Source: an uncultured Actinomycetes bacterium
GTDB lineage: Bacteria > Actinomycetota > UBA4738 > HRBIN12
Assembly (NCBI GenBank): GCA_963816425.1
Contig: CAWFKP010000006.1
Coordinates: 747,787-811,786 of the forward strand
Length of the DNA stretch: 64,000 bases
Direction: 5' to 3'
Positions 2,363-57,616 of this stretch are shown piece by piece; the stretch's first letter is position 1, and the number at the start of each line of letters is the position of its first letter. The notes beneath the pieces were generated by a model. It searched no databases. It was not told the DNA's origin and saw only the letters and a list, made by a program, of their open reading frames with translations. Made by a program: the position numbers and the translations under genes.

Positions 2363-4824
<2,462 letters not shown>

Positions 4825-13189: not shown

Positions 13190-13199
13190 GCGGCGCGTC

Positions 13200-41285: not shown

Positions 41286-42500
41286 ATGCAACGCACGAGC
41301 GCACCGCTTGACCTCGCGGCCGTCGAGCGGGTCCTGCGACCCTACGACCGGGCCTTCACGCTTCCCGGCGAGGCGTACGGGTCTCCCGACGTCTTCGCGT
41401 GGGAGCAGGCGCACCTGTTCGAGGGATCGTGGTCCTGTGTGGGACGGACCGCAGACCTCGGCTTGGACACGCCGGGGGATCAGGTCGCGCTGCAGGTCGG
41501 TCGTCAGAGCTTCCTCCTCGTGCGCGGCGACGACATGGTCGTGCGCGTGTTCCACAACATCTGCCGCCATCGAGGTCACGAGCTGCTCGGCGTCGGCGAG
41601 CACCGCAACCAACGCGGCATCCGGTGCCCGTACCACGCCTGGGTGTACGGGCTCGGCGGCGATCTCCGCGCAACGCCGCGGTTCAACATGGATTCGCTGG
41701 ACAAGGCCGACTTCCCACTCGTCGAGGCGCGATCAGCCGAGTGGCGCGGGTGGCTGTTCGTCAACGCGAGCGGTGACGCGCCCGACCTGACGGACTACCT
41801 GGGAAACCTCGACATCGTCGTCGACGGTTATGCGCCGGAGACGCTCCGGCTGGGCGCCAAACACGAATACGAGCTCGCGGCGAATTGGAAGATCGCCGTC
41901 GAGAACTACTGCGAGTGCTACCACTGTTCGGAGATCCACCCGGAGCTGTGTCGCGTCACGCCCCCGGACTCCGACCTCGCCTACCCCGAGCGCTCGACGG
42001 GCGTCTGGCTCGGCGGGCCGATGGACCTGCTGGATCACGCGGTGACGATGTCGTTGACCGGTGCGTCCGACGGCGTGCTCATCCCGGGCCTGCCCCAGGA
42101 GAAGGCTCGGCAGGTCGGCTACTCCGTCGTGTTCCCGAACCTGCTGATCAGCCCGCACCCCGACTACGTGATGACGCATCGCCTCGTCCCCGTGGCCGCG
42201 GACCGCACGTGGGTCGAGTGCGCGTGGTACTTCCCCGAGGAGGCCTTCGCGAAGCCCGACTTCTCCCCGGCGTACGCGACCGAGTTCTGGGACATCACGA
42301 ACCGTGAGGATTGGGCCGCCTGCGAGTCCGTGCAACGCAACGTCACCTCAGCGGGGTATCGACCCGGGCCGTTCTCGTATTGGGAGGTCGACGTGTTCCG
42401 CACGCAGGCGACGATCGCACGCGCGTACCTGGAAGGGCATCTGTCGCCGCCCGAGCACGGGTACGTCGACGGTGTCGGGCGCGGTCTGACCGGCTTCTGA
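41286..42500 (+). CDS. Rieske non-heme iron oxygenase alpha subunit (GbcA/choline monooxygenase/N-demethylase-like)
   Basis: CRHRG...CPYHAW Rieske motif; NWK...ENYCECYHC..IHPEL; ED...CE.VQ. Confidence 0.9.
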   Translation: MQRTSAPLDLAAVERVLRPYDRAFTLPGEAYGSPDVFAWEQAHLFEGSWSCVGRTADLGLDTPGDQVALQVGRQSFLLVRGDDMVVRVFHNICRHRGHELLGVGEHRNQRGIRCPYHAWVYGLGGDLRATPRFNMDSLDKADFPLVEARSAEWRGWLFVNASGDAPDLTDYLGNLDIVVDGYAPETLRLGAKHEYELAANWKIAVENYCECYHCSEIHPELCRVTPPDSDLAYPERSTGVWLGGPMDLLDHAVTMSLTGASDGVLIPGLPQEKARQVGYSVVFPNLLISPHPDYVMTHRLVPVAADRTWVECAWYFPEEAFAKPDFSPAYATEFWDITNREDWAACESVQRNVTSAGYRPGPFSYWEVDVFRTQATIARAYLEGHLSPPEHGYVDGVGRGLTGF

Positions 42501-42535
42501 TCGCATCTCGGCACGGCGGCTAGGATGCCGCGGAC

Positions 42536-43696
42536 ATGACCCCCGGAAGGACCCTTGTCACCGTCGCGCTCGTCGTCTCGCTGCTGTCGGCGTGCACGGG
42601 CTCGACGACGTCCTCTGCGGTGTCGACCACACCGCCGTCGACGGCGACGACGAGCGACGCGCCGACACCGTCCGAGCCGAAGACCGGCACGATCGTGGCG
42701 GAGCCGGTCGCCACCGACCTCGATCATCCGGCCACGTTCGTCTTCGACGACAGCGGCGCGCTCTTCTACGGGGAGCGGCTCACCGGTGAGATCCGCAGGA
42801 TCGATCCGACGACCGGAAAGGACACATCGGTCTTCACGGTCCCCCACGTCGTCGGCGACGTCGCGAACGAGCAGGGTCTCGTCGGGCTCGCCCTCGCCCC
42901 GGACTTCCCGCACGACCCCTGGCTGTACGCGTACGCGACGCGCATGGTCGACGGGGTCGCGCACGACCAGATCGTGCGGCTCCGCGTCGACGGCACACGC
43001 GGGTCATCGATGCAGCTGGTGCTCGACGTCCAGGTCGCGGGAGAACGCCACAACGGGGGCCGCATGCTGTTCGGACCCGACGGGATGCTCTACGTCGTCG
43101 TGGGCGAGACCTACGACTCGGCGCTCGCGCAGGATCGGTCGGTCAACGGCGGCAAGGTGCTCCGCATGACCCCCACCGGCGGGATCCCGGCGGACAACCC
43201 CTTCCCGGGGAGCCGGATCTACTCCTACGGGAACCGCAACTCCTTCGGTCTGGCGTTCGATCAGAAGACGGGCGATCTCTGGGAGACCGAGAACGGCCCC
43301 GAGTGCAACGACGAGCTCAACAGGATCCAGCCCGGTCGCAACTACGGCTGGGGCCCATCGGAGACCTGCAAGGGGAAGGCGCCGGGCGACACGAACGCCG
43401 ACGGCCCGAAACCTGTTGCACCGCTGCTGTTCTACCCGACGACGATCGGACCGACCGGCATCGCGTTCTGCAACGGCTGCGGGCTCGGCACGGCGCGCGA
43501 GGGCGATCTGTTCTTCGGCTCGTTCAACACCGGCGATATCCACGAGGTGACGCTCAACGCCGAGCGCACCCGTGTGTCGCGCGACGCCACGCCGTTCAAC
43601 CACGGGAACCTCGTGCTGTCGATCGAGACGGGCCCCGACCACGCGCTGTACTTCAGCGACGGCGTGGGCATCTTTCGGCTGGCGCTCGAGGGCTGA
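42536..43696 (+). CDS. PQQ-dependent sugar dehydrogenase (GSDH family) lipoprotein
   Basis: Lipobox LSAC; EQGLVGLA, HNGGRMLFGPDG, GKVLR, YGNRNSFG, DELN...G.NYGW. Confidence 0.9.
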   Translation: MTPGRTLVTVALVVSLLSACTGSTTSSAVSTTPPSTATTSDAPTPSEPKTGTIVAEPVATDLDHPATFVFDDSGALFYGERLTGEIRRIDPTTGKDTSVFTVPHVVGDVANEQGLVGLALAPDFPHDPWLYAYATRMVDGVAHDQIVRLRVDGTRGSSMQLVLDVQVAGERHNGGRMLFGPDGMLYVVVGETYDSALAQDRSVNGGKVLRMTPTGGIPADNPFPGSRIYSYGNRNSFGLAFDQKTGDLWETENGPECNDELNRIQPGRNYGWGPSETCKGKAPGDTNADGPKPVAPLLFYPTTIGPTGIAFCNGCGLGTAREGDLFFGSFNTGDIHEVTLNAERTRVSRDATPFNHGNLVLSIETGPDHALYFSDGVGIFRLALEG

Positions 43697-43700
43697 GCGC

Positions 43701-44594
43701 TCACCCCACGGGAGGCGCGCCCGAGGAGCCCCGGGCCCGCTCCATCCGGCGGAACGCCACCACCGCCACCACGATGACGATCGTCGAGGTGACGAGCATC
43801 AGCGTGCCGATCGCGTTGGCGGCCGGCGTCGGCGCCGTCCGCGCGGCGCCGTAGATCGCCATCGACACCGTCTGCGTCGTCGCGTCGAGGGACAGCTGGT
43901 TCGCGATCACGAAGTCGTCCAACGCGAGCGCGAACACGATCGCGGCGCTCGCGAAGATCGACGGCCCCAACAATGGGAGCGTGACGCGGCGAAGCGTCTG
44001 ACCGGGCGACGCGCCGAGGTCCTGGGCCGCCTCCTCGTAGGAGGGCCCGAGCGAGAGCAGACGCGCGCGGACGATCACGACTGGGTAGGCCACGGACAGC
44101 ACGATCAACCCGGTCGCCTGCGCCGTGGTGCCGTACCCGATCGATCGGAACGCCTGGTTGAACAGCAGGAAGAGCGCCACGGCCAGGATCAGTTCGGGCG
44201 TCACGAACGAGAACATCATCATGAAGTTGGACGACCGCGACGAGACGCCCCGCCAGCGATGCAGGCCGATCGCGAACAGCACGCCCAGCGGCACCGCGAT
44301 CACCGCGGTGAGCAACGACAGCTTCAGCGTCTGGATCACGGCATGTTGCAGCGCCGGGTCGTGCAGCACCGACGCGTCCGGATCGGTGATGTACCAGCGC
44401 AGCGAGAATCCCTGCCACTGCGTGATCGATCGGCCACCGTTGAACGAGAAGATCACGGCCTGCACCACCGGGACGAAGATCCACACGACGTAGGCGATCG
44501 CCAACACCCACAGGAACCGCGCCTTCCCCCAGGGGTTCGCCAGCCAGTCGCGGACCCGATGCCGCTGCCGCGGTGGAGCGACGAACACGCTCAT
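43701..44594 (-). CDS. Polyamine ABC transporter permease (PotC-like)
   Basis: FSFN...WQGFSLRWY; EEAAQDLGAS EAA motif; LDDF. Confidence 0.9.
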   Translation of the reverse strand: MSVFVAPPRQRHRVRDWLANPWGKARFLWVLAIAYVVWIFVPVVQAVIFSFNGGRSITQWQGFSLRWYITDPDASVLHDPALQHAVIQTLKLSLLTAVIAVPLGVLFAIGLHRWRGVSSRSSNFMMMFSFVTPELILAVALFLLFNQAFRSIGYGTTAQATGLIVLSVAYPVVIVRARLLSLGPSYEEAAQDLGASPGQTLRRVTLPLLGPSIFASAAIVFALALDDFVIANQLSLDATTQTVSMAIYGAARTAPTPAANAIGTLMLVTSTIVIVVAVVAFRRMERARGSSGAPPVG

Positions 44595-45512
44595 GCCGCA
44601 CCCACCTGTGTCGCCGCGCGTTGCGTGCTGCGCAGGTAGTACACGATCGGGATGATCAACAACACGAGCAGGAACAGGATCAGCGCGGCCCCCTGCGGCA
44701 CGAAGATCGGCGTGCGCGAGACTGTCGACGACCGCGTTGCCGATCATCCTCGTGCCGCTGGTCCCCGCCAGCAGCTGCTGGGTGAAGTAGTCGCCGAACA
44801 TCGGCAGCGCGCAGATCACGAACCCGGCGAGGATCCCCTGGCGCGACTCCGGGAACGTGACGCGCCAGAACGTCTGGGCCGGGCTCGCGCCGAGGTCACG
44901 GCCCGCCTCGAGGATCGAGGGATGGATGCGATCCAACGTGGCGAACAGCGGGAGCACCATGAACGGCACGTACCCGTAGACGAGGCCGATGATCAACGTC
45001 GCGGGCTTGCCGGCGAGCCACGGGTACGGGCTGTGGATGATCCCGAGGCGCTGCAGGACCGAGTTGATCAGCCCGTCGTCTTCCAGCAGCGAGATCCACG
45101 CCAGCATCCGAAGCATGTAGGAGATCCAGAACGGGGCGAAGAACAACGCGATGAACAGCCCCCGCCACCGCCCCGCGTGCCGAGCCAGGAAGTACGCGAA
45201 CGGGTAGCCGACGAGCAGACACAGGAACGTCGCGATCCCCACGTAGAGGAAGGTCCGCACCAGGGCGGCGTGATACAGCCCATCGGCATGTGTCACGTTC
45301 GACAGCGTGAACGTGAGCACCGCCGGGTTCCACCGCAGCGGGTTCCACGCCGGAACGGGCAGCCGCAGGATGTCGTCCACGCCGCCGAAGGCCACCGCCA
45401 GCACGACGAAGAACGGGAAGACGAAGAACACGAGCAAGAAGACCGTCGCCGGCATGGCGAACGACGGCCAGTACCACCGCGGGTACCACCCGGTGCGAGG
45501 TGCTTTAGACAC
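44591..45512 (-). CDS. Polyamine ABC transporter permease (PotB-like; frameshift near 44715)
   Basis: GYPFAY, PFWISYMLR..AW, YVPFMVLPL, EAGRDLGA, MIGN. Confidence 0.88.
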
Positions 45513-46830
45513 CCGCCGTCAGCTCGGCGTACGCGGCCTGCCACAAGGCATCCGCGGTCGCCGGCAACTCGAGCTCCCGCGAGCCGCGGTCCATGTCGCT
45601 CTCGACGATGTACACGTTCGCGAGATGCTCGGGCGACCAGCCCGCTGCTCACGAGCGCGTCACGGGTCATCGCCTTGATCGGCATCTGGTAGCCGGTCCA
45701 GGTCTCGAAGTTCGTCATCGCGTTCTGCGAGTCGAGGATGTGGTTCAACAAAAGGTGCGCGAGCACCGGCGCCTTGCCGGTGTTCAGCAGGACGAGCGTG
45801 TCGTTGTCGACGTTGCCCGGCACGCCGCTTTCGACCGGCCAGACGTAGGACAGGTTCTCGGCCTGATCGCCTGCCGGCAGGAACACGAAGGCGTCGCTGA
45901 CGTTGCCCGACCAGGACTGATGCAGGTAGGCCTGTCCCTTCGGCACGTCGGTGTAGTCATCGTGATCGAAGACGGCGTTCGTCGCGTTGACGACCTCGGA
46001 GATCGCGTCCTTCGCGGAGGTGATCGTCGCCTGATCGGTCGATGTTCACGTCGGTGAGTCCCTCGCGGAACATCGCCATCGACAACACGTCCTGGGCGTT
46101 CGCGAGCAGGTGGGTCTTGTCCACCGGCGCGCCGCTCCAGAAGATGTCGTATGGGTTCGCCATGCCGGCGATGTCGTCGCTGATCTTGTCGTTCCGCCAG
46201 AAGATCCCGGTGCTCCACACGGAGTACGGCAGCGTGTAGTGCGAGTCGACGTCGTAGAACGGGCTCTGGAACGTGTCCCAACAGTTGGCCGGGAGGTTGG
46301 GGATGTAGTCCAGGTTGATCGGGCGCAGCAGCCCGGCGGCGATCGAGCGGCCGACCGCCCAGACGTTCATCCCGACCAGCAGGTCGAAGTCGCCCTGACC
46401 GGTGTTGATCTTCGCAAGCCCCTTGTCCATGTCGACGAACTCGGTCTGCTCGACGGTGCAGCTGTACTTCTTCTCGAACGACTTGATCACCGAGGGGGCC
46501 AGGTAGTACGGCCAGCGGAGGATCTTCACGGTGGCGTTCTCCTCCGGCGGGAGGTCGCTCGCGATCAGCTCGGCTGTCATCGACGTTCCAGGTGACGGGC
46601 GCGTCGGGACGCGCCAGGGGATAGGCCGCGCCGGAGATGCCGCCGGTGCCGTACTGGCTGCCGCTGCCACCGGAGGCCGCGGACGTCGCCACGCTGCTCT
46701 GCGCGCCACTGCCGCACGCGGCGAGGATCGCCGACAGGCTGGGGACCGCGATGCCGGCGAGCGCTGCCCGCTGGAGGAACGCGCGACGACTGTAGAGCTG
46801 ACGTTCTTTCGGGTGCAGCGGTCGGACCAT
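45505..46830 (-). CDS. Tat lipoprotein polyamine-binding protein (PotD-like; frameshifts near 46575, 46035, 45630)
   Basis: SRRAFL Tat motif plus LAAC; WPYYL, FEKKY, PFYD...YTLPY, QSWSG, DND spread over three frames. Confidence 0.8.
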
Positions 46831-46940
46831 GCTGAGCTCCTCCTCCGGGGTGCGCGGATGCGTTGGTGCGCTTCGTACACCGGAATACGGTGCCGACGCA
46901 AACTCCGGCTTGGGTTGCGGGTCATCTCTACACTGCAGGC

Positions 46941-48773
46941 ATGCCCAGCAGAGACGACATCCGCAACGTGGCCATCGTGGCCCACGTCGATCACGGCAAG
47001 ACCACCCTGGTGGACGCCATGTTGTGGCAGTCCGGCGCGTTCCGGGCGAATCAGGACGTGGCCGAGCGGGTGATGGATTCCATGGATCTCGAGCGGGAGA
47101 AGGGCATCACGATCCTGGCCAAGAACACGGCCGTGCGATTCGGCGACATCAAGATCAACATCGTCGACACGCCCGGGCACGCCGACTTCGGGGGAGAGGT
47201 GGAGCGGGCGCTCACGATGGTCGACGGCGTCCTGCTGCTGGTCGACGCGTCCGAGGGTCCGTTGCCGCAGACGAGGTTCGTGTTGCGGAAGGCGCTCGAA
47301 TCGAGGTTGCCCGTCGTCCTGGTGGTCAACAAGGTTGACCGTCCCGACGCCCGGGTGGAGGAGGTCGTCCACGAGGTCGAGGAGCTGTTCTTGGACCTCG
47401 ATGCCGACGAGCACCAGATCGATTTCCCGATCCTGTACGCGAACGCGCGGGACGGTCACTGCGGACGGGCGCCCGACGCGTTGGAGGACTCGCTCCGACC
47501 GCTGTTCGACACCCTGCTCGCGCACGTGCCCGCGCCGACGTACGAGCAGGATGCGCCGCTCCAGGCGCTGGTGACCAACCTGGACGCCTCCCCCTACCTC
47601 GGTCGCCTGGCGCTCTGCCGGGTCCGCAACGGGACGATCCGTCGCGGGCAACAGGTGGCGTGGTGCCGGGCGGACGGCACGATCGAGCGGGCCAAGATCG
47701 TCGAGTTGTACGTGACCGACGCCCTGGATCGGGTCGAGGCCGAGGAGGCGGGCCCCGGGGAGATCTGCGCGATCGCCGGGATCGCGGACGTGACGATCGG
47801 CGAGACGCTCGCCGACCCCGACGACCCGCATCCGCTCCCGGTCGTCCGCGTCGACGAGCCCTCGTTGTCGATGACGATGGGGATCAACACCTCGCCGCTG
47901 TCCGGCCAGGACGGCTCGAAGGTCACCGCGCGGCTCGTCAAGGCGCGGCTGGACCAAGAGGTCATCGGGAACGTCTCGATCCGCGTGCTTGACACCGAGC
48001 GGCCCGAAACGTGGGAGGTCCAGGGCCGCGGCGAGCTCCAACTGGCGATCCTGGTCGAGGTGATGCGCCGCGAGGGGTTCGAGCTGACGGTCGGCAAGCC
48101 GCAGGTCGTGACGAAGACGGTTGACGGGAGGCTGCTCGAGCCGATGGAGCGTGTGGCGATCGACGCGCCCGAGGACTACCTCGGCGTGATCAGCCAGCTC
48201 CTCGCGCTGCGGAAGGGCCGCATGGAGCAGGTCGTGAACCACGGCACCGGATGGATCCGCATGGAATACATCGTGCCGTCGCGCGGTCTGATCGGGTTCC
48301 GAACGGAGTTCATGACCGAGACACGCGGCACGGGTCAGCTGCACCACGTGTTCGACGGCTACGAGCCGTGGCACGGGGAGCTGCGAACGCGGCCCTCGGG
48401 CTCGTTGGTCGCGGATCGACGCGGGCCGACCACCAACTTCGCGCTGCTCAACCTCCAGGAGCGTGGCGTGATGTTCGTCGGCCCCGGGGAAGAGGTCTAT
48501 GAGGGGATGATCGTCGGCGAGAACGCCCGCGCCGACGACATGGACGTGAACCCGACGAAGGAGAAGCAGCTCACGAACATGCGCAAGGCCAACGCCGAGG
48601 AGCTCGTGCGGCTGATCCCGCGGACCCTGCTGTCGCTCGAACAGGCGCTCGAGTTCATCCGCGAGGATGAGTGCGTCGAGGTCACGCCGAAGAACGTGCG
48701 ACTGCGCAAGGTGCTGCTCGGTGCGAACGACCGCGTCCGCGCGTCGCGTCGTGGGCGGCCCGCGAAGGACTAG
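46941..48773 (+). CDS. typA: Translational GTPase TypA/BipA
   Basis: [53 protein letters not shown]. Confidence 0.98.
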
Positions 48774-49580
48774 GGACGGCTTGTAGCTGCGTCACGCACG
48801 GGGAGATCCGTGTGGTCGGGCATCCATCGATCGAAGTCGGTCGCCTCGTCGAGCCCCACGAGCTGCCGCTGCGTCGGGCGTCAGGCGCTCGGCGACGGTC
48901 GGCATCCAGGGCGAGATCGTCGCGCGGCCGGATCCATCGGTACGTGTACGCGAAGAACAATGCCTTGCGGACCCGGTCGGATGGGTTGGGACCGCGCATG
49001 TGCCAGAGCCGGCGGTCGAACACGACCGCGTCGCCGGGCGCGGCGAGGATCGGGATGGCGGCCGGCGCGTCGTCGTCGCTCGCCCGCTCGAGGGTGTTGC
49101 GCACGTGCGACCCGGGCACCACCAAGAAGTTCCCGCGGTCGGGACTCCGCAGATCCGTGAGGAAGAACGCGACCTTCAGGGAGAGCCGAGGGCGGGGATC
49201 CGTCTCGAGATCCCGATTCTGGATCCCGCCGTCTTGATGCCACCGCCAGCGTGTGCGGCGGCTCGTTCTCGGGCGGATGGACGTCGAGATGACAGTGGTA
49301 CATGAAGATGTTCGGTCCCAGGACGTCCACGATCGTCCCCAACGTGCGGGGGTGATCCAGCAGGTCGAGGAACCGCGGATCCTCGTTGAGGAACGCGAGG
49401 AGGTGCAGGGGCTCTCCTCCCCGGCGGGGAGGCGTCGTCGCGATGCCGGCGCCACACCTCGTCCACGGTCAGGCGGAGGTCGGCCACCTCCTCGGGGGGA
49501 AGCACGCCCCGGAGCAGCGCGTATCCGTCGGTTTCGAGCTGCATGACGGCGTCGATCGACGGCTCGGTGAGCGTGTGCAC
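48770..49580 (-). CDS. Phytanoyl-CoA dioxygenase (PhyH)/EctD-like Fe(II)/2-oxoglutarate dioxygenase (about 3 frameshifts)
   Basis: [33 protein letters not shown] spread across frames; SD AGGAGG. Confidence 0.78.
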
Positions 49581-49642
49581 GACTGACCTCCTGCTCGGCC
49601 TACCCCACAGAGACCGGTGCGAGCCCGGGAAAGTTCCCGGAG

Positions 49643-51658
49643 CTAGGTGGAGGGCGCGGGCACGACGTCGGCGTTGCCGAGGGCGTCGCCCTCCGGTGCC
49701 TCGACCGTCGAGCGGCCGATCTTCCGGGCGCCGAACACCCACGCCAGCATGTAGAGGATCGCGGCGATCACGAGCAACCCGCGGTACCCGGTGATCAGCG
49801 AGAGGTACTCCAGTACCCCGCCGAACATCGCGCCGAGGAGGTTCGCGCCGAACGCCGTGGTCGGGTCCGCGGTGTCGCGGAAGCGTTCGGCGAAGACGAG
49901 GTTCGCGATGAAGACCGGGAAGAAGGCGAGGGCGGAGGCGGCCAGGAAGCGCGGCGCGGTCGAGAGCGAGAGCAGCCATGAGCCCGGCACGAGGCCGGCC
50001 ACCAGCAGTCCGCCGAAGAGCAAGCGAGAACAACAGCCCCGGTCGTCTGATCCGCGTTCGACGTTCGACCTCGATCGCGGCGAGGATCACCAGCAAGATG
50101 CCGGCGAACACGAGCGCGTTGACGAACCACGTCGTGCCGAACAGCAGTGCGAACTGCACCACGGACTTGGTCTCGAGCAGCAGGAAGCCCGCGCCCATGA
50201 AGAAGAGGTCGAGGTAGCCGCGCATCGCGCCGAACTTGCCCCCGGCGAGGCGCACGGACAGGGCCGAGACGATCAGGATCAGGCCGAGGGTCCACAGGTA
50301 CCGCGAGGGGATCGACGGGCGTCTTCAGGTAGACGAAGGGCCGGTCGTCGGTGGCCGGCGGCACCACTTCGCCGCTCGGAGCCCAGGTGGCGTCGCAGTG
50401 TGTCGCAGCCGGGTCCGTGCCGACGTCAGCATCGAGAACGTTCCGACCCCGTCGCCGCCGCGTCTCGCCCAGATCGAGGCACGGCGCGTGGCCGTAGACG
50501 CCTTCCAGCCCGCCGGCCAGGCGATCCAGGAGCCACGGTTCGCGGTAGAAGTTGTACATCGAGAAGGCGCCTTCGTCGGTCAGATGATCGCGAGCGGCCT
50601 CCATCGCCTCCTTCGTGAAGAGGAAGCTCTCGAATCTGACGGCGGACTGTCCGCTGACGAGCGTGAGGGAGTCGGGCAACGCGAAGATGATCAGGTCGTA
50701 CTTCGTGTCGGTCTGCTGCAGGAACGCTCGGCCGTCGTTCGCGATCCGTGTGACCCGTGGGTCGTCATACGGGTGCAGGGGGTGATAGGTCTCGCCGAGG
50801 TCCTGCAGGACCGGGTCGATCTCGACCGCGTCGACGTGCTCCGCCCCCGCCGCGAGCGCCGCGGCGACGTCGTTCCCGTTCCCGGCCCCCACGATGAGGA
50901 CGTTCTTCGGCGGCGAGGACATCAGCTCATACGGCTTTTGGTAGATCGTGCCGTTGATGTCGATCATCCCCTGGTGGGGGATGCCGTTCACATCGATCTG
51001 GCGGAGATCGGCGTAGTACTGCACCCGGTAGTACTGCGACCAGATCGTGAGTCCTGCGCTCGTCCCGACGACGGCGATGAGCACGAGCGCGATACCGGCC
51101 GCGACGTCGATGGCCCTCGGCCGCCATTTCAGCAACACGATGAGGACCGCGATCACGATCATCCAGCCCACCGGCGGATACACGGAAGTAGGCCAGGAGG
51201 GAGTAGGCGATGATCCCGGAGAGCGATCCGATGATGTCGAGTCGGTAGGCCTCGAGCGCGGAGAACTTCTGGAACCGTTGCGCGACGCCGTAGGCGATCA
51301 TCATCATGATCGCGGCCACCGCGAGGAAGACGAACGGCAGCACGACCCAGGTGGGCAACCCCTTCGTTTCGAGCGAGCCGAAGAAGATCAGGTTGCTCCC
51401 GCCACGGTCGATCTGGACCGGGAACCCTTTGACGAGCCCGATGAAGATCGCCAATGAGACCGGAGCCCATCGGAACAGGTCGGGGCCGCGATGCGCACGC
51501 AAGAACCCCAAGCCGATCCCGAGGAAACTCCCGAGCAGCACGAAGTTCGAGAAATACGACAGATAGACGATGTACGCCCCCGCCCAGCGGATCAACACGA
51601 GCTCCGTGAAGAGCATCAGGAAGCTGGCGAGCAGCAGCTGCAGCCGGTCGTTGCGCAT
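49643..51658 (-). CDS. Membrane-fused spermidine-synthase-like SAM-dependent transferase (about 3 frameshifts)
   Basis: TM block; WSQYY; VLIVGAGNGNDV; AVEIDP; NDGRAFL; YDLIIFALPDSL; TDDRPF; FGANLLGAM. Confidence 0.82.
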
Positions 51659-51677
51659 CAGCGGAGTGTAGGGGAGG

Positions 51678-52577
51678 TCATGAGGCAGTGGCGGGACCCT
51701 GGCCGGCCTCTTTGACGGCACGCAGCACCGTGTCGCCGATCTCGGCAGGGTTGCGGACGACCCGGTGCCCCAGCGCCTCGATCGCGTCGAGCTTCTCGGT
51801 GGCGGTGTCTGCATCGCCCGCGATCACGGCGCCGGCGTGGCCCATCCGGCGTCCGCGCGGCGCGGACACGCCCGCGATGAAGCAGACGAGCGGCTTCGCC
51901 ATGTACTGCGAGGCCCACGTTGCCGCCTCGACCTCCTGTTGCCCGCCGATCTCGCCGATCATCACGACCACGTCGGTATCGTCGTCGTTCTCGAAGGCCT
52001 GAAGCACCGTCTTGAAGTCGGTGCCGTTGACCGGATCGCCCCCGATACCGACGCAGCTCGACTGGCCGAGTCCGAGGGCGGTCATCTGGCTGACCGCCTC
52101 GTAGTTGAGGGTGCCCGACCTCGACACAACCCCGACGCGGCCCGGCAGATAGATGTGGCTCGGCATGATCCCGACCTTGCATTCGCCGGGCGTGATGATG
52201 CCTGGTGAATTCGGGCCGATGATCGTCGTCGAGCGGCCGGCCAGGTAGCGCTTCGTGCGGACCATGTCCTGAACGGGCACGCCGTCCGCGATGATCACGG
52301 CGATCTGGATGCCTGCCTCGACAGCCTCCAACAGGGAGTCGGTCGCGATCGCGGGCGGCACGAAGATCCCGCTCACCGTCGCGCCGGTCTCCTCCACCGC
52401 CTCGGCCACGGAGTTGAACACCGGCAACCCGAGATGCACCCTGCCGCCCTTGCCGGGCGTGACGCCGCCAACGACCTTCGTGCCGAACCGGATCGACTCC
52501 TCGGCATGGAAGGTGGCGTGCTGGCCCGTGAAGCCCTGGATGATCACCTTCGAGTCTTTGTCGACGAACACGCTCAT
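51678..52577 (-). CDS. mtkB: Malate--CoA ligase (malate thiokinase) alpha subunit / SucD homolog
   Basis: QGFTG, GGVTPGKGG, IGPNSPG, SRSGTL, GEIGG, RMGHAGA; sits in an operon with mtkA and mcl. Confidence 0.75.
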   Translation of the reverse strand: MSVFVDKDSKVIIQGFTGQHATFHAEESIRFGTKVVGGVTPGKGGRVHLGLPVFNSVAEAVEETGATVSGIFVPPAIATDSLLEAVEAGIQIAVIIADGVPVQDMVRTKRYLAGRSTTIIGPNSPGIITPGECKVGIMPSHIYLPGRVGVVSRSGTLNYEAVSQMTALGLGQSSCVGIGGDPVNGTDFKTVLQAFENDDDTDVVVMIGEIGGQQEVEAATWASQYMAKPLVCFIAGVSAPRGRRMGHAGAVIAGDADTATEKLDAIEALGHRVVRNPAEIGDTVLRAVKEAGQGPATAS

Positions 52578-53743
52578 GCCACGGCCTCCGAGACCGCGGC
52601 GACGGCCTTGGCTGCCGCATCGTCCAGGTCGTCGGCCTGGATCACTGCGAGACCGGAGGCCGTCAGGATGCGACGGCCTTCCTCGACGTTCGTGCCGGCG
52701 AGACGCGCGATCACGGGAACGCCGATCTGCTGGTCGCGTGTCGCCTGCACGATGCCCTGCGCGATCCAGTCGCAGCGGTTGATACCGGCGAAGATGTTGA
52801 CGAGGATCGCCTCGACGTTCGGGTCGGTGAGCACGATCCGAAAGGCGTTCGCGATCTTCTCCGGGCTGGCGCCGCCGCCGACATCGAGGAAGTTCGCAGG
52901 CCGCCCGCCGTGGTGCACGATGGCATCCATCGTCCCCATCGCGAGCCCGGCCCCGTTCACGATGCACCCGACGTTGCCGTCGAGCGCGACGTAGTTCAGC
53001 CCGTGCCCCGAGGCGTCGACCTCTTTGGGGTCCTCTTCGTCGAAGTCGCGCAGTTCGGCCACGGCCGCCTGCCGGTACAGCGCGTTGTCGTCGAACTGCA
53101 TCTTGCAGTCCAGCGCGATCAGATCCCCATCCTCCGTGACGATGAACGGGTTGATCTCGAGCAGCAGGCAATCCTTGTCGCGGAACAGCCGGTAGATCCG
53201 CTTCAACAGCCGAGTGAACGACGCCGCGCGGTTCGCCAGGCCGATCGACGTCGCGATCTTGCGGCACTGGAAATCGAGCAGGCCAACGCCCGGATCGACG
53301 TGCTCGGTGTGGATCGCGTCGGGGCGCTCGGCAGCGACCTCCTCGATCTCGACACCTCCTTCCGCAGAGACGATCACGACGATCTTCTGCGAGGTGCGGT
53401 CGACGATCATGCTGAGGTAGAACTCGCGGTCGATCCGACTGGCACGCTCCACCAGCACGCGGTGGACCCGTTTGCCCTCGGGCCCCGTCTGCGCCGTGAT
53501 CAGGGTCGAGCCGATCATCTGGTCGGCGACCTCGGCAACCTTCTCCACCGAGTTGGCGACCTTGACGCCCCCACCCTTGCCGCGGCCCCCGGCGTGGATC
53601 TGCGCCTTGACCACCCAGCGGACGCCACCGAGTTCCTCCGCCACCCGAGCCGCCGCGCGGTCGCTGTAGACGACCTCACCGGCGGGCACGGGCACGCCGT
53701 AGCCCTTGAGCAGTTCCTTCGCCTGATACTCGTGGATGTTCAT
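52574..53743 (-). CDS. mtkA: Malate--CoA ligase beta subunit / SucC homolog
   Basis: MNIHEYQAKELL, KAQIHAGGRGK, NGAGLAM; VNIFAGINRCDW (MtkA-type, whereas SucC has IFGGI.RCD). Confidence 0.8.
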   Translation of the reverse strand: MNIHEYQAKELLKGYGVPVPAGEVVYSDRAAARVAEELGGVRWVVKAQIHAGGRGKGGGVKVANSVEKVAEVADQMIGSTLITAQTGPEGKRVHRVLVERASRIDREFYLSMIVDRTSQKIVVIVSAEGGVEIEEVAAERPDAIHTEHVDPGVGLLDFQCRKIATSIGLANRAASFTRLLKRIYRLFRDKDCLLLEINPFIVTEDGDLIALDCKMQFDDNALYRQAAVAELRDFDEEDPKEVDASGHGLNYVALDGNVGCIVNGAGLAMGTMDAIVHHGGRPANFLDVGGGASPEKIANAFRIVLTDPNVEAILVNIFAGINRCDWIAQGIVQATRDQQIGVPVIARLAGTNVEEGRRILTASGLAVIQADDLDDAAAKAVAAVSEAVA

Positions 53744-53764
53744 CGTCCTCGCCCTCGCGTCCCG

Positions 53765-54730
53765 TCAGCGGGCGCGCATCTGCTCGACCTTGGTGATCAG
53801 GTTCTGCGCCATGCGGATCGAGGCGGCATCGATCAATCGGCCGTCGAGCGAGACCGCCCCCTTGCCCTGCTTCGCACCGTCCTCCATCGCCTGGAGGATG
53901 CGGTGGGCGCGTTCGATCTCGGCGGCGTCCGGCGTGAAAACCTCGTTCGCAAGCGCGATCTGGGACGGATGGATCGCCCATTTGCCCTCGCAACCGAGGG
54001 CGGCGGCGCGTCGCGCCGCGCTCCGATAGCCGTCCGCGTCGTTGAGGTCGCCGAACGGCCCGTCGATCGGCCGCAACCCTTCCGCGCGGCAGGCGGCGAC
54101 CATGCGCGAGATGCCGAAGTGCCACTGGTCGCCCCAGTGGGTCTCGCGCGCGCCGGTCGCGTCGCCGTCGGTGAGCACGGCGTAGTCGGGATTCGCGCCG
54201 CCGATGTTCGTCGTTCGCGCCTGCACGCTGGCCGCGTAGTCGGCGACGCCGAAGACCATCGCCTCGAGCCGGTCTGGTCGCGCGCGCGCGATCGACTCGA
54301 CGTTGGCCATGCCCTTGGCGGTTTCGATCAGGATGTGGATGCCGATCCGACCCGGCTCCCACCCGTTGCGCTGCTCGATCTGGTCCAACAGGGTCGCGAC
54401 GAAGACCACGTCGGATGCCGACCCCACCTTCGGGACCAGGACGGTATCGAGCACGTCGCCGTGTGCCTCGACGACGTCCACGATGTCCCGATAGCACCAG
54501 TGGGTGTCGAGGCCGTTGACGCGCACGCTGATCGCCGTCGATGACCAGTCCTGCGCGCCCAACGCGTCGATCACGTTGGCACGCGCCTGTTCCTTGTCGT
54601 CGGGCGCGACCGCGTCCTCCAGGTCGAGGAACACGAGGTCCGCGCCCAGGGTCGCGGCCTTCTCGATCGCGCGCACGTTGGTGCCGGGCACGGCGAGCTC
54701 GCTGCGGTGCAGCCGGGCTTTCTCGGTCAT
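53765..54730 (-). CDS. mcl: Malyl-CoA/(S)-citramalyl-CoA lyase
   Basis: RLHRSELAVPG, FLDLEDAVAPDDKEQAR, FGVADYAAS, IGGANPDY...HWGDQWH, IDGPFGD, GCEGKWAIHPSQ. Confidence 0.88.
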   Translation of the reverse strand: MTEKARLHRSELAVPGTNVRAIEKAATLGADLVFLDLEDAVAPDDKEQARANVIDALGAQDWSSTAISVRVNGLDTHWCYRDIVDVVEAHGDVLDTVLVPKVGSASDVVFVATLLDQIEQRNGWEPGRIGIHILIETAKGMANVESIARARPDRLEAMVFGVADYAASVQARTTNIGGANPDYAVLTDGDATGARETHWGDQWHFGISRMVAACRAEGLRPIDGPFGDLNDADGYRSAARRAAALGCEGKWAIHPSQIALANEVFTPDAAEIERAHRILQAMEDGAKQGKGAVSLDGRLIDAASIRMAQNLITKVEQMRAR

Positions 54731-54736
54731 GGCGGC

Positions 54737-55874
54737 TCAGCGTGGCAGGACGGTGTCGAAGGCGCCAAGCACCCGATCGGCGGCCACGCGGTTCGCGTTC
54801 ACGCCCATCAGGCCAACGCGCCAGATGGGGGGAGCCTTCGGACCGAGCCCGCCGCCGACCTCGAGGTTGAACTCCCGCAGGAAGCGTCCCTGCACCTCCT
54901 TGCCGTCGACGCCCTCGGGCACCTTGACCGCGGTGAGCTCGACCAGCTGGTGGTCGCCGTCGGCGAGCAGCTCGAAGCCACGGGCCGTGATCTGCTCCTG
55001 GAAATAGCGACCGGCGTCCGTATGCCGAGCCCACCGGTTCTCGAGGCCCTCGTCGAGCGCCAGACGGATGCCGGTGTACAGCGCGTAGTACTGCAGGATC
55101 GGCATGGTGTGGTGGTAGGCGATCGGCCGGTCGATCCAGTACTTCGCCAGCTCCTCGAAGTCGTAGTAGTAGGGGACCGCGCTCGTGTGCGCCTTCATGA
55201 CCTCGATCGCGCGATCGCTGATCGTGACCGGCGCGATACCGGGCGGACACCCGAGGGCCTTCTGCGAGCAGGAGTATCCGTAGTCGATGCCCCAGGCGTC
55301 GGCGTCGACGCGTTGGCCGCCGAGCGATGTCACGCAGTCCGACGTAGAGCAGCGCATCCGAGCCGCTCGCCCGCATCGCCTCGGCGAGCTCCTGCAGCGG
55401 GAACTCCACACCGGTGGACGTCTCGGCATGCACGACCGACACGACCTTCGCCGCGGGGTTGGCCCCCAGCGTCTCCATGATCCGGTCGACCGAGACGAGT
55501 TGACCGAAGTCGGCGGTGAGCTCGACGACCTCGGCGCCGACCCGGTGCGCGAAGTCGTTCAGCCGCGAGCCGAAGAACCCCCAGTGGCAGCTGATGACCG
55601 TGTCGCCGGGCTCGATCAGGTTCATGAGGCCGGCCTCCATCGCCGACGTGCCCGAGGACGACAGGCAGATCGACAGTCCGTGCGAGGAGCGCCAGAGGGC
55701 CTGTAAGCCCGAGACGAGGTCCACGAGGACGTCCCAGAAGTCGGGGTCGAGATGCCCGTTCATCGGCAGGCGCATCGACTCGAGGACGTCCGGGTGCACG
55801 TTCGAGGGACCGGGACCGCAGAGCAGTCGCTCGCCCGGGTCCAATGCGGGGATCGAGGTCGCCAGGTCGGCCAT
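54737..55874 (-). CDS. Serine/alanine--glyoxylate aminotransferase (class V PLP; frameshift near 55343)
   Basis: LLCGPGPSNV, GTSAME, VHAETSTGV, DCVTSLGG, SCSQKAL..PPG, YHHT, WRVGLMG. Confidence 0.88.
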
Positions 55875-55936
55875 GGCTCTTCCTTTCCTGTTCGAGTCCC
55901 GGTCGGTCCGCCGGCCGGGATTGAGGGGCGGAGCAT

Positions 55937-55999
55937 AGGGCACCCGTTCAGCCAGGAGGTAGCGGGTGCCCTTGAACGCCGGTCAGTGGCCGGCGTTCA
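55937..55999. other. Two abutting perfect 10-bp hairpins between the hpr-like and sga-like genes
   Basis: AGGGCACCCG(55937-46)/CGGGTGCCCT(55963-72) and TGAACGCCGG(55973-82)/CCGGCGTTCA(55990-99). Confidence 0.7.
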
Positions 56000-56028
56000 T
56001 CCCGTGTTCTGCAGCCCCGTCGCCACCG

Positions 56029-57010
56029 CTACACGAACGCGTCGGGGTTGAGGAGCGTGGGCGGTCGGGCGCCGTCGAGCGCCGCGAACACGTTGTCGAC
56101 CGCGAGGTTGCCCATCGCGTCGCGCGTGTCGATCGTCGCGCTGCCCAGATGGGGGATCACGACCGCGCGCTCCAGCTCCAGGAGCTTGGCGGTGACCTCC
56201 GGCTCCCGCTCGAAGACATCGAGGCCGGCGGCGAACAGCTCGCCTGCCTCCAGCGCATCGGCGAGGGCGGCCTCGTCCACGACCGGCCCGCGCGACGTGT
56301 TGACGAGCACGGCGCTCGGCTTCATCCGGCGGAACTCCTCGGTGCTGAACAGGTGGCGCGTCTCGGGCGTGAGGTTCGTGTGGATCGAGATGAAGTCCGC
56401 CTCCGCGAGCAGGTCGTCGAGCTCGACCCGGCGCGCACCGGTCTCGGCCTCGACCTCGGGCGGGCAGCTGCACTGCGTCGCTGTACAGGACGGTCATGCC
56501 GAAGCCCTTCGCCCGGCGGGCGACCGCCTGCCCGATCCGCCCGAAGCCGACGATGCCGATCGTCTTGTGGTGGACGTCTTGGCCCAGCATCATCAACGGA
56601 CCCCAGATCCACGGGGTGCGGGCACGCAGGAGACGCTCGCCCTCGCCGATCCGGCGAGCGCCCGCCAACAGGAGTGCGAACGCCGTGTCGGCCGTGGTCT
56701 CCGTCAATACGTCGGGCGTATTGGTCGCGAGCACCCCGGCGGCGGTACACGCGGCGACGTCGACGTTGTCGAACCCGACGGCGTGGTTCGCCACGATCCT
56801 CAGCTGCGGCCCGGCGGCGGCGAGCAACTCCGCATCGACGCGCTCGGTGAGCATCGTGATCAACGCGTCGCGACCCGCCACGACCCGCAGGAGTTCATCG
56901 CGCGGGATGCCGAACTCGTTCTCGTGCACGGTCACGTCGCATCGCTCGCGCAGACGAGCGAGCGGCTCATCCATGATCGGGCGGGTCACCAGCACGTTCG
57001 GTCGACTCAC
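56029..57010 (-). CDS. D-glycerate dehydrogenase / hydroxypyruvate-glyoxylate reductase (frameshift near 56465)
   Basis: AVGFDNVD, NTPDVLTETTAD, GFGRIG, NTSRGPVVDE, GLDVFEREP, PHLGSAT. Confidence 0.9.
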
Positions 57011-57100
57011 GGGTTCGCTCCTCGCGACAGGAAACGCGGAGCTTGCCACGGCGAGGCATGCGAGCGGTAGTCGGGGTCACCGGCCGGCGGTCATGCGACG

Positions 57101-57616
57101 ATGACGAGCGTGACCTGGCATGTGGAGACCGAACGGCTGCGGCTGCGGCCGATGTCGCTCGACGACCTCGACGCGTTCGCGGCGGTCGTGGGCGACCCCG
57201 AGTCGATGCGCTTCTATCCTCGGCCGTTCGACCGATCGATGGCTCGCGCGTGGATCGAACGGGTGGGGGAGCGCTACGAGCGCGACGGGATCGGACTCCT
57301 CGCGGTGGTCGAGCGGGCGACCGACGACATGATCGGCGACTGCGGCCCGATGGTGCAGGAAACCGGCCATGGTTCGTTCGTCGAGCTCGGGTGGCACATC
57401 CGTCGCGATCGACAGGGTCTCGGGTTCGCGACCGAGGCGGGCGCCGCGTGCCGCGATCGAGCGTGGGCCGAGCTCGACGCCGACCGACTGATCAGCATCA
57501 TCCGACCCGAGAACGTGCCGAGCTGGTCGGTCGCCCGCGCCCTCGGATTCCGGCCGTGGCGCGGCGACGTGCGCGCCGGCATGGCACACATCCTGTGGAC
57601 GATCGAGCGCCCCTGA
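57101..57616 (+). CDS. RimJ/RimL-type GNAT acetyltransferase
   Basis: ETERLRLRP, IGDCG, ELGW, QGLGFATEA, PEN.PS. Confidence 0.88.
   Translation: MTSVTWHVETERLRLRPMSLDDLDAFAAVVGDPESMRFYPRPFDRSMARAWIERVGERYERDGIGLLAVVERATDDMIGDCGPMVQETGHGSFVELGWHIRRDRQGLGFATEAGAACRDRAWAELDADRLISIIRPENVPSWSVARALGFRPWRGDVRAGMAHILWTIERP

Follow-up and report, generated by a model that had tools for sequence, protein, structure and literature searches.

A serine-cycle-type gene island in its ppc-less form in a family of uncultured Actinomycetota

The 64,000-nucleotide stretch of DNA analysed here (the window) carries on its minus strand five co-oriented genes (57049..51678), encoding in this order a glyoxylate/hydroxypyruvate reductase (hpr), a class-V aminotransferase, a malyl-CoA lyase (mcl) and the SucC-like beta and SucD-like alpha subunits of a ligase. 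They form a genuine serine-cycle-type island in a family of uncultured Actinomycetota, present here without ppc. The locus is probably, if far from certainly, a ppc-less form of a serine-cycle island, hpr-[ppc]-agxt-mcl-mtkA-mtkB, carried as an accessory trait of one uncultured soil Actinomycetes family. The co-oriented cluster had been recognized in a first-pass annotation, which overlooked frame changes in hpr and in the aminotransferase gene. The actinobacterial lineage proposed there was upheld, the nearest records being those of an uncultured Actinomycetes bacterium, and its description as unexpected was supported by the rarity of the island in the phylum (17 of 401 genomes sampled). The findings suggest a family-wide handling of C1/C2 carbon by serine-cycle-type genes in soil Actinomycetes, with one step of the cycle missing here.

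The 154-nt spacer between hpr and the aminotransferase gene (55875..56028, minus strand), delimited by reading of the sequence, is the site of ppc in relatives, and contains a 9-bp perfect inverted repeat, GGGCACCCG ... CGGGTGCCC. In the relative L004, approximately 2.5 kb (ppc) lies between matching flanks of this spacer. PEP carboxylase was not found in the source genome, either by a Pfam search or by tblastn with the Ppc of a relative; its absence had been named in the first-pass annotation as evidence against a serine cycle. The ppc-less form is real, since a gapless soil contig (run X4, record 30, 55748-56082) spans this junction with no ppc in it, and no ppc was found in a 98%-complete relative with an island of the same form. 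Among the 12 genomes of the family in which Mcl was matched, the order hpr-ppc-sga-mcl-mtkA-mtkB was observed in five, the ppc-less form seen here in one, sga-mcl-mtkAB in two, mcl-mtkAB in three and mcl alone in one. No ppc was found in any of the four island-less family genomes (94-97% complete), and 8 of the 10 ppc-bearing genomes of the genus also have mcl. In this family ppc behaves as a part of the island to which it is linked, and is located mainly inside it.

The aminotransferase gene ("sga"; 54737..55874, minus strand) starts at an ATG at 55874, preceded by a purine-rich stretch. Pfam and PDB matches place its product in the AGXT type (alanine/serine:glyoxylate/pyruvate), the best PDB match being the alanine-glyoxylate aminotransferase 1vjo (348 bits), compared to about 245 bits for human AGT 1h0c and 129 bits for Arabidopsis SGAT 6pk1. 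Identity to the Sga adjoining mtk amounts to 26-34% in all 10 proteobacterial genomes that were searched. The earlier assignment thus held for a class V glyoxylate aminotransferase, but orthology to methylotroph Sga was rejected on these identities and scores. AGXT enzymes take the amino group from serine and pass it to glyoxylate. According to Pfam, NCBIfam and PDB matches, hpr (56029..57049, minus strand) encodes a GRHPR-family glyoxylate/hydroxypyruvate reductase (D-2-hydroxyacid dehydrogenase); its start is the GTG at 57049 or a later one, and its stop the TAG at 56031-56029. The best NCBIfam match was glyoxylate reductase NF009714, and the L004 orthologue matched best the glyoxylate reductases 6bii, 5aov and 2dbq in PDB (285-319 bits), compared to 210 bits for D-glycerate dehydrogenase 1gdh.

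Most of the genes proposed earlier as checks of the remaining pathway were found elsewhere in the genome: glyA, a glycerate kinase (class I, not MOFRL-type), formate-THF ligase, icl and ccr (507 bits), the latter with epimerase, thiolase and carboxyltransferase genes nearby; ATP-PEPCK is also present. Three of these, glyA, glycerate kinase and FTHFS, are family core genes whose distribution does not follow that of the island (FTHFS in 22 of 22 family genomes, glycerate kinase in 19 of 22). The enolase gene (eno, 2952..4469, plus strand; Pfam Enolase_N and Enolase_C) does lie inside the window, as had been noted; enolase is a serine-cycle step as well as a housekeeping enzyme, and the gene is unlinked to the island. 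Neither a full-length pyruvate carboxylase nor GTP-PEPCK was found in the genome and, with ppc not found either, the carboxylation step has no dedicated enzyme here. For primary C1 oxidation, enzymes of the PQQ methanol/ethanol dehydrogenase type were sought, with no match over the cut-off in the genome, and no primary C1-oxidizing system was identified within this scope. The genome gave no match over the cut-off for 3-hexulose-6-phosphate synthase either, and hence no RuMP alternative. C1 assimilation by the serine cycle, as first proposed, is consequently upheld in part: the ligase clade, Mcl, glyA, glycerate kinase and the ppc of the relatives' islands favor it, but since ppc and a PQQ C1-oxidation gene were not found and "sga" is of the AGXT type, a closed serine cycle is not supported here.

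In a working serine cycle, SHMT (the product of glyA) would form serine from methylene-THF and glycine, the AGXT-type aminotransferase would transfer the serine amino group to glyoxylate to yield hydroxypyruvate and glycine, the GRHPR-type reductase would produce glycerate, and the class-I glycerate kinase and enolase would lead to PEP. In the relatives, the island-encoded PEP carboxylase would convert PEP to oxaloacetate and hence malate; in this genome, ATP-PEP carboxykinase or malate derived from the TCA/glyoxylate reactions may fill the ppc step, or else the cycle would be open. The MtkAB-type ligase would then activate malate to malyl-CoA, and Mcl would cleave it to acetyl-CoA and glyoxylate, closing the glycine/glyoxylate loop; the acetyl-CoA would enter Ccr (the ethylmalonyl-CoA route) and/or isocitrate lyase. 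Candidate sources of the C1 unit are formate, via formate-THF ligase, and methyl groups, via MttB/corrinoid systems. Both the substrate specificities and the direction of flux in this scheme are what we infer.

A serious alternative, because no malate synthase was found in the 87%-complete genome, is the opposite, malate-forming direction, which we nevertheless consider rather unlikely. In this scenario malyl-CoA would be formed by Mcl from acetyl-CoA and glyoxylate, the latter supplied by isocitrate lyase or by the ethylmalonyl-CoA route, and the Mtk-type ligase would release malate and ATP; the two would replace the missing malate synthase with no net C1 assimilation, and glyoxylate would be drained or buffered as glycine/glycolate, and serine turned into glycerate, by AGXT and the reductase. 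Both the Mcl and Mtk reactions are reversible, and among 18 same-genus genomes malate synthase was found in 2, ICL in 17 and ccr in all 18. The only Mcl-like gene in the genome (a single tblastn match at E<=1e-5) must also serve any ethylmalonyl-CoA pathway. The missing ppc, the retention of mcl-mtkAB rather than hpr/sga as the family's core, and the best matches of the reductase to glyoxylate reductases are likewise consistent with this scenario. However, the linkage of ppc to the island, and its absence from the island-less family members searched, would be hard to explain with malate as the product. Moreover, in about half of the genus both malate synthase and this Mcl are lacking although ICL and ccr are present, so that the island is not simply the family's malate synthase, and the known Mtk-clade members used here all belong to serine-cycle-type clusters with mcl.

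The mtkA-like gene (52574..53743, minus strand; 389 aa) was assigned as a malate-CoA ligase-type beta subunit by NCBIfam, tree and motif, and the mtkB-like gene (51678..52577, minus strand; 299 aa) as the alpha subunit by the NCBIfam SucD models (421 bits) and Pfam CoA_binding and Ligase_CoA. The mtkB-like ATG overlaps the mtkA-like stop (ATGA), an arrangement that points to a probable translational coupling of the two. A second, canonical sucCD, suggested earlier as a check, is located on contig C4 and is 44% and 50% identical to the window pair, which is therefore not the sole SucCD. The beta subunit scored 561.9 bits against NCBIfam NF010647 (malate-CoA ligase beta), under the cut-off of 604, and 552.9 bits against NF001913 (SucC), over the SucC cut-off; canonical alphaproteobacterial SucC score 503-573 against NF010647, a range that includes the window subunit (562). 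Subtracting the Suc from the Mtk model score gave +9 bits for the window subunit against +165 for a true MtkA representative; the C4 copy came out at -109 and 39 further representatives between -6 and -104. Membership of the beta subunit in the Mtk clade was shown by a tree of 53 rows, including 28 of its nearest 50%-cluster representatives, in which it shared a clade with two mcl-adjacent Thioglobus copies and with 13 MtkA that pass the NCBIfam cut-off (UFBoot 99/SH-aLRT 97), branching at the base of the Mtk clade. The beta subunit thus sided with malate thiokinases, as had been proposed, and not with succinyl-CoA synthetases; a 71-row beta tree also grouped it with MtkA (SH-aLRT 96), and the alpha-subunit tree gave the same grouping unsupported (SH-aLRT 19). 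The IFAGINRCDW signature, to which the first-pass annotation had drawn attention, proved real and discriminating. It occurs in 3 of 3 actinobacterial-clade rows, in both Thioglobus copies located beside mcl and in 21 of the 25 MtkA that pass the cut-off (the other four read VFAGINRCDW), and in none of 69 canonical SucC; FAGINRCDW is found in all 30 rows of the Mtk clade and in 0 of the 69, and the C4 SucC has IFGGITRCDV at this site. The order mcl-mtkA-mtkB, with mcl directly upstream, recurs at 15 of 25 true-mtkA loci and at both Thioglobus loci.

The intact mcl (53765..54730, minus strand; 321 aa) encodes a CitE-like malyl-CoA/beta-methylmalyl-CoA lyase by PDB matches and Pfam HpcH_HpaI. The identity first suggested was supported by its closest solved structure, the malyl-CoA lyase/beta-methylmalyl-CoA lyase 5ugr (423.8 bits, E 4e-126, residues 5-318), presumably the enzyme of the methylotroph M. 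extorquens, followed by 4l9y (309 bits) and 4l7z (203 bits). It is 57-63% identical to mcl genes adjoining true mtkA; other families of the same order have a different Mcl type, 41-48% identical. A quite improbable scenario is that the ligase is a second SucCD-type synthetase for succinate or another dicarboxylate (itaconate, citramalate, methylsuccinate), with the lyase acting on the matching CoA ester in a dicarboxylate-degradation module rather than in glyoxylate/serine metabolism. It would account for the NCBIfam scores of the beta subunit, for the lyase's top NCBIfam match (the itaconate-degradation lyase RipC, 187 bits, under its cut-off) and for the names given to close beta homologues, among which "succinyl-CoA synthetase beta subunit" and "malate-CoA ligase" are roughly equally frequent. 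However, the ligase is placed with Mtk by tree, motif and synteny alike, the lyase scores 424 bits with the solved malyl-CoA lyase versus 141 with the RipC-type 3qll, and the adjoining genes encode a glyoxylate aminotransferase and a glyoxylate/hydroxypyruvate reductase, joined in relatives by ppc.

As assembled, hpr and the aminotransferase gene each contain one frame change, an extra C in a C run near 56458-56462 and an extra G near 55342, respectively. The Pfam domains 2-Hacid_dh and 2-Hacid_dh_C of hpr and the halves of Aminotran_5 are accordingly divided between two frames, and the intact hpr orthologue of L004 and the whole aminotransferase orthologue of L005 each align to the window in two frames. 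Contigs of four public short-read soil runs (X1-X4) were aligned to the window. At 55342 exactly one base is absent from the contigs of X1, X2 and X4 at full depth, and at 56458/56459 one base is absent in X1 (depth 10.1/10.1), X2 (7.5/14.1) and X4 (5.17/5.17); X3 had no cover at either site. These contigs, together with the intact genes of the relatives, indicate that the frameshifts are consensus errors of the assembly and not signs of pseudogenes, and that the reading frames are intact in nature. That the island is a decaying, functionless relic, with two of five genes frameshifted and ppc lost (not found in the genome), is scarcely credible given the soil contigs, the GC3 coding signal that runs unbroken through both frame changes, the similar changes in other window genes, and the different breakpoints among relatives (ppc and the aminotransferase gene broken in L004, the latter whole in L005), a pattern of long-read consensus errors.

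Gene sets of this kind are otherwise typical of proteobacterial serine-cycle (one-carbon) assimilation. One published operon reads sga-mcl-mtkB-mtkA-hpr-gck plus glyA-ppc (PMC13199381). The island resembles the clusters of proteobacterial methylotrophs (Methylobacterium/Methylorubrum extorquens type: sga, hpr, mtkA, mtkB, ppc, mcl) in grouping the same enzyme functions, in the position of mcl directly upstream of mtkA-mtkB, in the beta-subunit clade with FAGINRCDW and the similarity of Mcl and, in the actinobacterial relatives, in having ppc inside the island. M. extorquens uses one Mcl for both the serine cycle and the ethylmalonyl-CoA pathway, as the single Mcl would do here. Unlike those clusters, the island belongs to an uncultured Actinomycetota family, lacks mtdA, fch and gck, and has a basal Mtk under the curated cut-off, an AGXT-type aminotransferase with low identity to their Sga and a reductase nearest to archaeal/thermophile glyoxylate reductases; the glycerate kinase of this genome is class I rather than MOFRL-type, and ppc and PQQ methanol dehydrogenase were not found in it. 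With SucCD (E. coli 1jkj/2scu) the ligase pair shares fold, two-subunit layout and Pfam domains (412 bits for E. coli SucC), but it lies outside the canonical clade, in a genome with a separate canonical sucCD, and reads A-G-I-N-R-C-D-W where the canonical enzymes have G-G-I-[MVT]-[RK]-C-D-[VILR], a stretch that we take to line the succinate site in solved SCS structures. Mcl shares the CitE-like TIM-barrel lyase type with the Mcl/Mcl1 enzymes of the ethylmalonyl-CoA pathway and the 3-hydroxypropionate bi-cycle (5ugr, 4l9y and 4l7z, at the scores given above), of which 5ugr is the nearest. The aminotransferase, finally, has its best matches in AGXT enzymes (1vjo and human AGT), but its gene lies between hpr (or ppc) and mcl-mtkAB, in the slot occupied in Proteobacteria by an SGAT of the plant/methylotroph type.

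The island lies on the minus strand at 57049-51678 and, as the first-pass annotation had claimed, is made up of five co-oriented genes. These encode a D-2-hydroxyacid dehydrogenase of the glyoxylate/hydroxypyruvate reductase family (hpr, 57049..56029), a class-V aminotransferase ('sga', 55874..54737), a CitE-like lyase (mcl, 54730..53765), a SucC-like beta subunit (mtkA, 53743..52574) and a SucD-like alpha subunit (mtkB, 52577..51678), the ATG of the last overlapping the SucC-like stop as ATGA. The window occupies C6:747787-811786 of the source genome, G000, a 3.0 Mb assembly in six contigs (69% G+C, 87% complete, 0.7% contamination), in which hpr and the aminotransferase gene change reading frame once each, a feature not mentioned in the first pass. 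The shift in hpr corresponds to one surplus C near 56458-56462 and that in the aminotransferase to one surplus G near 55342, both in short runs. Contigs of four public soil runs from four studies (X1-X4) were aligned to window positions 54700-57100. The base at 55342 was missing from the X1, X2 and X4 contigs at full depth, and that at 56458/9 was missing at 10.1/10.1 in X1, 7.5/14.1 in X2 and 5.17/5.17 in X4, X3 having no cover at either site; record 10 of X2 was otherwise identical to the window, letter for letter, across 259 bases. At the loci of the two nearest relatives, both titled 'uncultured Actinomycetes bacterium', either hpr is whole and both ppc and the aminotransferase are broken (L004) or the aminotransferase is whole (L005). 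That different genes are broken in different assemblies is a pattern of consensus error and not of decay; a pseudogene reading of both frameshifts was ruled out by the soil contig alignments and the relatives, and the two frameshifts are assembly errors.

Comparable frame changes are seen in other parts of the window, such as 45.7-51.8 kb, both in the GC3 frame plot and in the ORF translations. Along 45700-51814 (minus strand) the coding frame changes several times, affecting a PhyH-like fragment and a membrane spermidine-synthase-like gene that is spread over at least three frames; positions 48971-51457 have no counterpart in L004, where typA comes directly after mtkB. These changes are probably further consensus errors within an inserted segment. 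A promoter and terminator scan of 51300-57400 yielded no promoter-like site and a single terminator-like site, which was not above shuffled sequences. The 154-nt spacer between hpr and the aminotransferase contains a 9-bp perfect inverted repeat (55940-55990, minus strand; GGGCACCCG ... CGGGTGCCC, flanking a loop of some 18 nt), and this spacer is the exact position of ppc in the relatives. The repeat could act as a hairpin or operator, and may be a scar of ppc loss or gain.

The possibility that the window pair is the only SucCD in its genome was rejected, as a second, canonical sucCD was found on another contig (C4:290351-292332), 44% and 50% identical to the window pair and adjoining a B12-binding mutase-type gene. 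The NCBIfam models leave the window beta subunit ambiguous: it scored 561.9 bits on NF010647 (malate-CoA ligase), below the cut-off of 604, and 552.9 bits on the SucC model. Across the 121 genomes of one proteobacterial order from which reference ranges were drawn, the NF010647 scores of true MtkA (so called for being over the NCBIfam cut-off, not by experiment) were 666-754, and those of canonical alphaproteobacterial SucC 503-573. The Mtk-minus-Suc score difference was +9 for the window subunit, +165 for a true MtkA representative, -109 for the organism's own C4 copy, and -6 to -104 for 39 other nearest representatives.

A careful beta-subunit tree was built from 53 sequences, a selection out of 107 extracted ones and 150 representatives. 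It comprises 13 MtkA over the cut-off, two mcl-adjacent Thioglobus sequences, those of the window, L004 and L005, 28 of the nearest 50%-identity representatives, six canonical SucC and the C4 copy. In this tree, whose bootstrap correlation of 0.985 is slightly short of settled, the 13 MtkA, two Thioglobus and three actinobacterial sequences formed one 18-row clade (UFBoot 99/SH-aLRT 97), of which the actinobacterial rows are the basal (earliest) branch; quick beta trees gave SH-aLRT values of 96 (71 rows) and 97. The beta subunit groups with MtkA rather than SucC, a point which the phylogeny settles as far as sequence can. The IFAGINRCDW signature, claimed in the first pass to be of the MtkA type, proved valid: [IV]FAGINRCDW is present in 30 of 30 clade rows (3/3 actinobacterial, 25/25 MtkA, of which 21 begin with I and 4 with V, and 2/2 Thioglobus) and in none of 69 canonical SucC, which carry IFGGIxxCDx (4 of the 69 matched the pattern not at all). 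The alpha-subunit tree returned the same topology, a grouping with MtkB, at an SH-aLRT of 19, which is no support. A scan of genome contigs with the beta subunit retrieved mostly canonical SucC of other phyla, at 48-58% identity, with close relatives at 2 of 79 loci; close homologues are named inconsistently by their sources, as succinyl-CoA synthetase or malate-CoA ligase. Two loci of Candidatus Thioglobus (SUP05 group; L017 and L018) carry mcl-mtkA-mtkB in the window order, with the FAGINRCDW motif, and branch between the actinobacterial clade and the MtkA over the cut-off.

Among the CitE-like/HpcH_HpaI enzymes compared, the lyase (Pfam HpcH_HpaI) is closest to characterised malyl-CoA lyases. 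It scored 424 bits over residues 5-318 against the solved malyl-CoA/beta-methylmalyl-CoA lyase 5ugr and 309 against 4l9y, compared with 141 against the RipC-type 3qll and about 50 against M. tuberculosis CitE entries. It is 57-63% identical to the mcl genes that, at 15 of 25 true mtkA loci, lie immediately upstream of mtkA, and is the sole Mcl-like gene in G000 at E<=1e-5. Matches of the aminotransferase were scored via the intact L005 orthologue and those of the reductase via that of L004. The aminotransferase gave 348 bits against AGXT 1vjo, about 245 against human AGT and 129 against Arabidopsis SGAT 6pk1. Its best matches in ten of ten Mtk-bearing proteobacterial genomes were 26-34% identical, a match adjoining mtkA in nine of them, and orthology with the mtk/mcl-linked proteobacterial Sga (SgaA/plant SGAT type) was not found in these ten genomes. 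The low identity and the AGXT-type scores indicate that the island employs a different subfamily at the aminotransferase step, in the Sga position. The first-pass name 'sga' thus stands as to a class-V glyoxylate-type aminotransferase at the Sga place, and fails as to subfamily, which is AGXT-type and not that of methylotroph Sga. BhcA of the beta-hydroxyaspartate cycle was rejected as an identity for this gene, its scores of 86 and 89 bits falling far short of the cut-off of 650. The reductase, of the GRHPR family, scored 285-319 bits against glyoxylate reductases and 210 against the Hyphomicrobium-type D-glycerate dehydrogenase 1gdh; GRHPR-family enzymes often accept both glyoxylate and hydroxypyruvate.

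As for the rest of the pathway, eno is in the window, and glyA and glycerate kinase, looked for outside it, are both present in G000: glyA at C6:1022312 in a housekeeping setting, and a class-I glycerate kinase at C2:256777, adjoining metH. In the family, all three belong to the core or housekeeping set. A MOFRL-type glycerate kinase was considered and dropped, none being found in G000. Formate-THF ligase is also present in G000; FTHFS occurs in 22 of 22 family genomes and glycerate kinase in 19 of 22, with no co-variation with the island, and for this reason they cannot separate a serine-cycle (C1) from a C2 reading. Glyoxylate regeneration is represented by ccr (507 bits, over the cut-off), with epimerase, thiolase, carboxyltransferase and hydroxybutyryl-CoA dehydrogenase genes nearby, and by ICL. 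Malate synthase, full-length pyruvate carboxylase, GTP-PEPCK and any PQQ methanol/ethanol dehydrogenase over the cut-off were not found in G000, and the RuMP alternative was set aside, no hexulose-phosphate synthase scoring over the cut-off in this genome. The first-pass annotation had let its reading hang on glycerate kinase, PEP carboxylase and GlyA; the first and last of these are present, and ppc was not found in the 87% complete G000, where ATP-PEPCK is a possible substitute. The absence of ppc is probably real, since a soil contig (X4 record 30) bridges the hpr-sga junction without it, and G307, a family genome of 98% completeness, is alike.

The distribution of the island was followed in 401 genomes, sampled evenly across the phylum. 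Seventeen of them carry a close Mcl (at least 63% identical): G000, 12 of the 22 other genomes of its family, and 4 of the 378 outside that family. The island is a mark of about half of this one actinobacterial family and is almost absent from the rest of the phylum. The 12 family loci comprise five of the form hpr-ppc-sga-mcl-mtkA-mtkB, one hpr-sga-mcl-mtkAB (the window form), two sga-mcl-mtkAB, three mcl-mtkAB and one mcl alone. At L004, too, ppc lies between hpr and sga, and in several same-genus genomes the distance between ppc and mcl is 1-3 kb. Searches of four island-less family genomes of 94-97% completeness found no ppc in any of them; in one genome (G469) it is present solely inside the island, in three island-bearing genomes it is elsewhere, and in four more island-bearing genomes, including G307 with its window form, no ppc was found. 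In this actinobacterial family, ppc is not a housekeeping or core gene. Six family genomes are cited in this respect (G141, G535, G227, G333, G307 and G169), and two island-bearing genomes without ppc are 98% complete. Six clustered genes that match the serine-cycle-specific set, the co-travelling carboxylase among them, form the strongest argument for a serine-cycle-type function.

Within the genus, mcl was tallied in 10 of 18 genomes, ccr in 18 of 18 and ICL in 17 of 18, with a malate-synthase match in G148; these tallies rest partly on the unpublished genomes G143 and/or G148. Roughly half of the genus combines ccr with isocitrate lyase while lacking both malate synthase and a close Mcl (tallies including G143). 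In public metagenomes the beta subunit is represented by at least 120 clusters of 81% or higher identity, and related sequence occurs in the soil runs of 7 studies. L151, a locus of another family of the phylum (G384, 9752-15756), holds a second serine-cycle-like cluster in Actinomycetota, of different build: 2 kb separate its Mcl gene (62% identical) from a cluster of sga, hpr and glycerate kinase (56%, 53% and 38%), with no mtkAB inside the 20 kb examined. At L148 (G199), mcl adjoins a divergently oriented sga.

We lean towards reading the island, from its gene content, as a serine-cycle module, of which G000 would carry a ppc-less form. In G000, PckA or malate from the TCA/glyoxylate routes would then make up for the PEP carboxylation step; otherwise the cycle would run open. 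The island is a real feature, and the first-pass interpretation, C1 assimilation by the serine cycle in an unexpected lineage, is partly supported: the Mtk clade, Mcl, glyA, glycerate kinase and the ppc-linked island of the relatives speak for it, and the missing ppc of G000 and the failure to find a PQQ methanol dehydrogenase there speak against it. The main rival explanation is that the same enzymes operate towards malate, in which case Mcl and a reversed thiokinase, fed by ICL or the ethylmalonyl-CoA route, would do the work of the missing malate synthase. This is possible though doubtful; it accommodates the missing malate synthase and ppc of G000, but fits poorly with the linkage of ppc to the island and with the many family members in which ICL and ccr are present and both malate synthase and the island are missing. 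A different dicarboxylate-CoA ligase/lyase module, in place of the malate thiokinase and malyl-CoA lyase proposed here, is improbable, and a decaying relic is very hard to credit, the broken frames following the pattern of consensus error.

An extension of the serine-cycle reading, offered tentatively and perhaps unlikely to hold in full, is that the whole family of soil Actinomycetes runs a working serine cycle with a deep-branching Mtk, an AGXT-type aminotransferase and a GRHPR-type reductase, fed by THF-bound C1 units rather than by methanol oxidation, ppc being a swappable accessory. The C1 units would come from formate via formate-THF ligase, and from methyl groups of quaternary amines via cobalamin-dependent MttB/corrinoid systems; in strains lacking ppc, such as that of G000, ATP-PEP carboxykinase would close the cycle, or an open half-cycle would operate. 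If true, an unrecognised, widespread C1-assimilating group would be added to soils.

Three MttB-family genes are present in G000, two of them with corrinoid proteins. One set lies in the window at 29893-33218 (minus strand), 17-20 kb from the island, and comprises a LacI-family regulator (29893-30921), a B12-binding corrinoid protein (30984-31721, minus strand), whose best NCBIfam match, MtgC, is below its cut-off, and an MttB-family methyltransferase (31725-33218, minus strand) with 399 bits on TIGR02369, below the cut-off of 525. One of the two further MttB-family matches in G000 is near the second corrinoid protein. The set at 29893-33218 may carry out cobalamin-dependent quaternary-amine demethylation feeding methyl-THF. 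Cobalamin-dependent betaine demethylation in aerobic bacteria, with induction of serine-cycle proteins, is described in the retrieved portions of PMC12478193, which makes the MttB/corrinoid pair of the window a plausible candidate C1 source. At 41259-45518 lies a gene for a Rieske oxygenase alpha subunit, whose best NCBIfam match is GbcA (glycine betaine monooxygenase; 177 bits, far below the cut-off of 670); next come a glucose/sorbosone dehydrogenase-type gene and, on the other strand, a 605-aa fused PotB/PotC-like ABC permease. An ORF at 13164-13847 (plus strand) matches Pfam MauE ('methylamine utilisation protein', 53.7 bits), a DoxX-like membrane family; by itself this match is no evidence of methylamine use.

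To our knowledge, the serine cycle has been regarded as a trait of Proteobacteria, and the actinobacterial methylotrophs characterised so far rely on the RuMP pathway. Full-text literature searches, with subscription journals outside their scope, yielded no report of such a cluster in Actinobacteria, and the passages retrieved from PMC5103831 and PMC11648730 describe no actinobacterial serine cycle; those from PMC13199381 describe an operon of Proteobacteria in which the same genes occur. Soil carbon models and surveys of methylotrophy markers (mxaF/xoxF, proteobacterial mtk) overlook these organisms if the island is active. The island occurs naturally with and without ppc, and comparing the two forms would be a convenient way to learn which steps a serine cycle needs; both the basal Mtk and the AGXT-type replacement would be of use in engineering such cycles.

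The pathway and every enzyme family in it are already known. New are the host, a family of uncultured soil Actinomycetota, and the natural polymorphism of ppc presence and absence, together with what appears to be a basal Mtk lineage, missed by the NCBI model, and a predicted AGXT-type aminotransferase in the Sga position. In proteobacterial serine-cycle clusters, by contrast, the Sga at this place belongs to another subfamily than the AGXT-type enzyme of the actinobacterial island.
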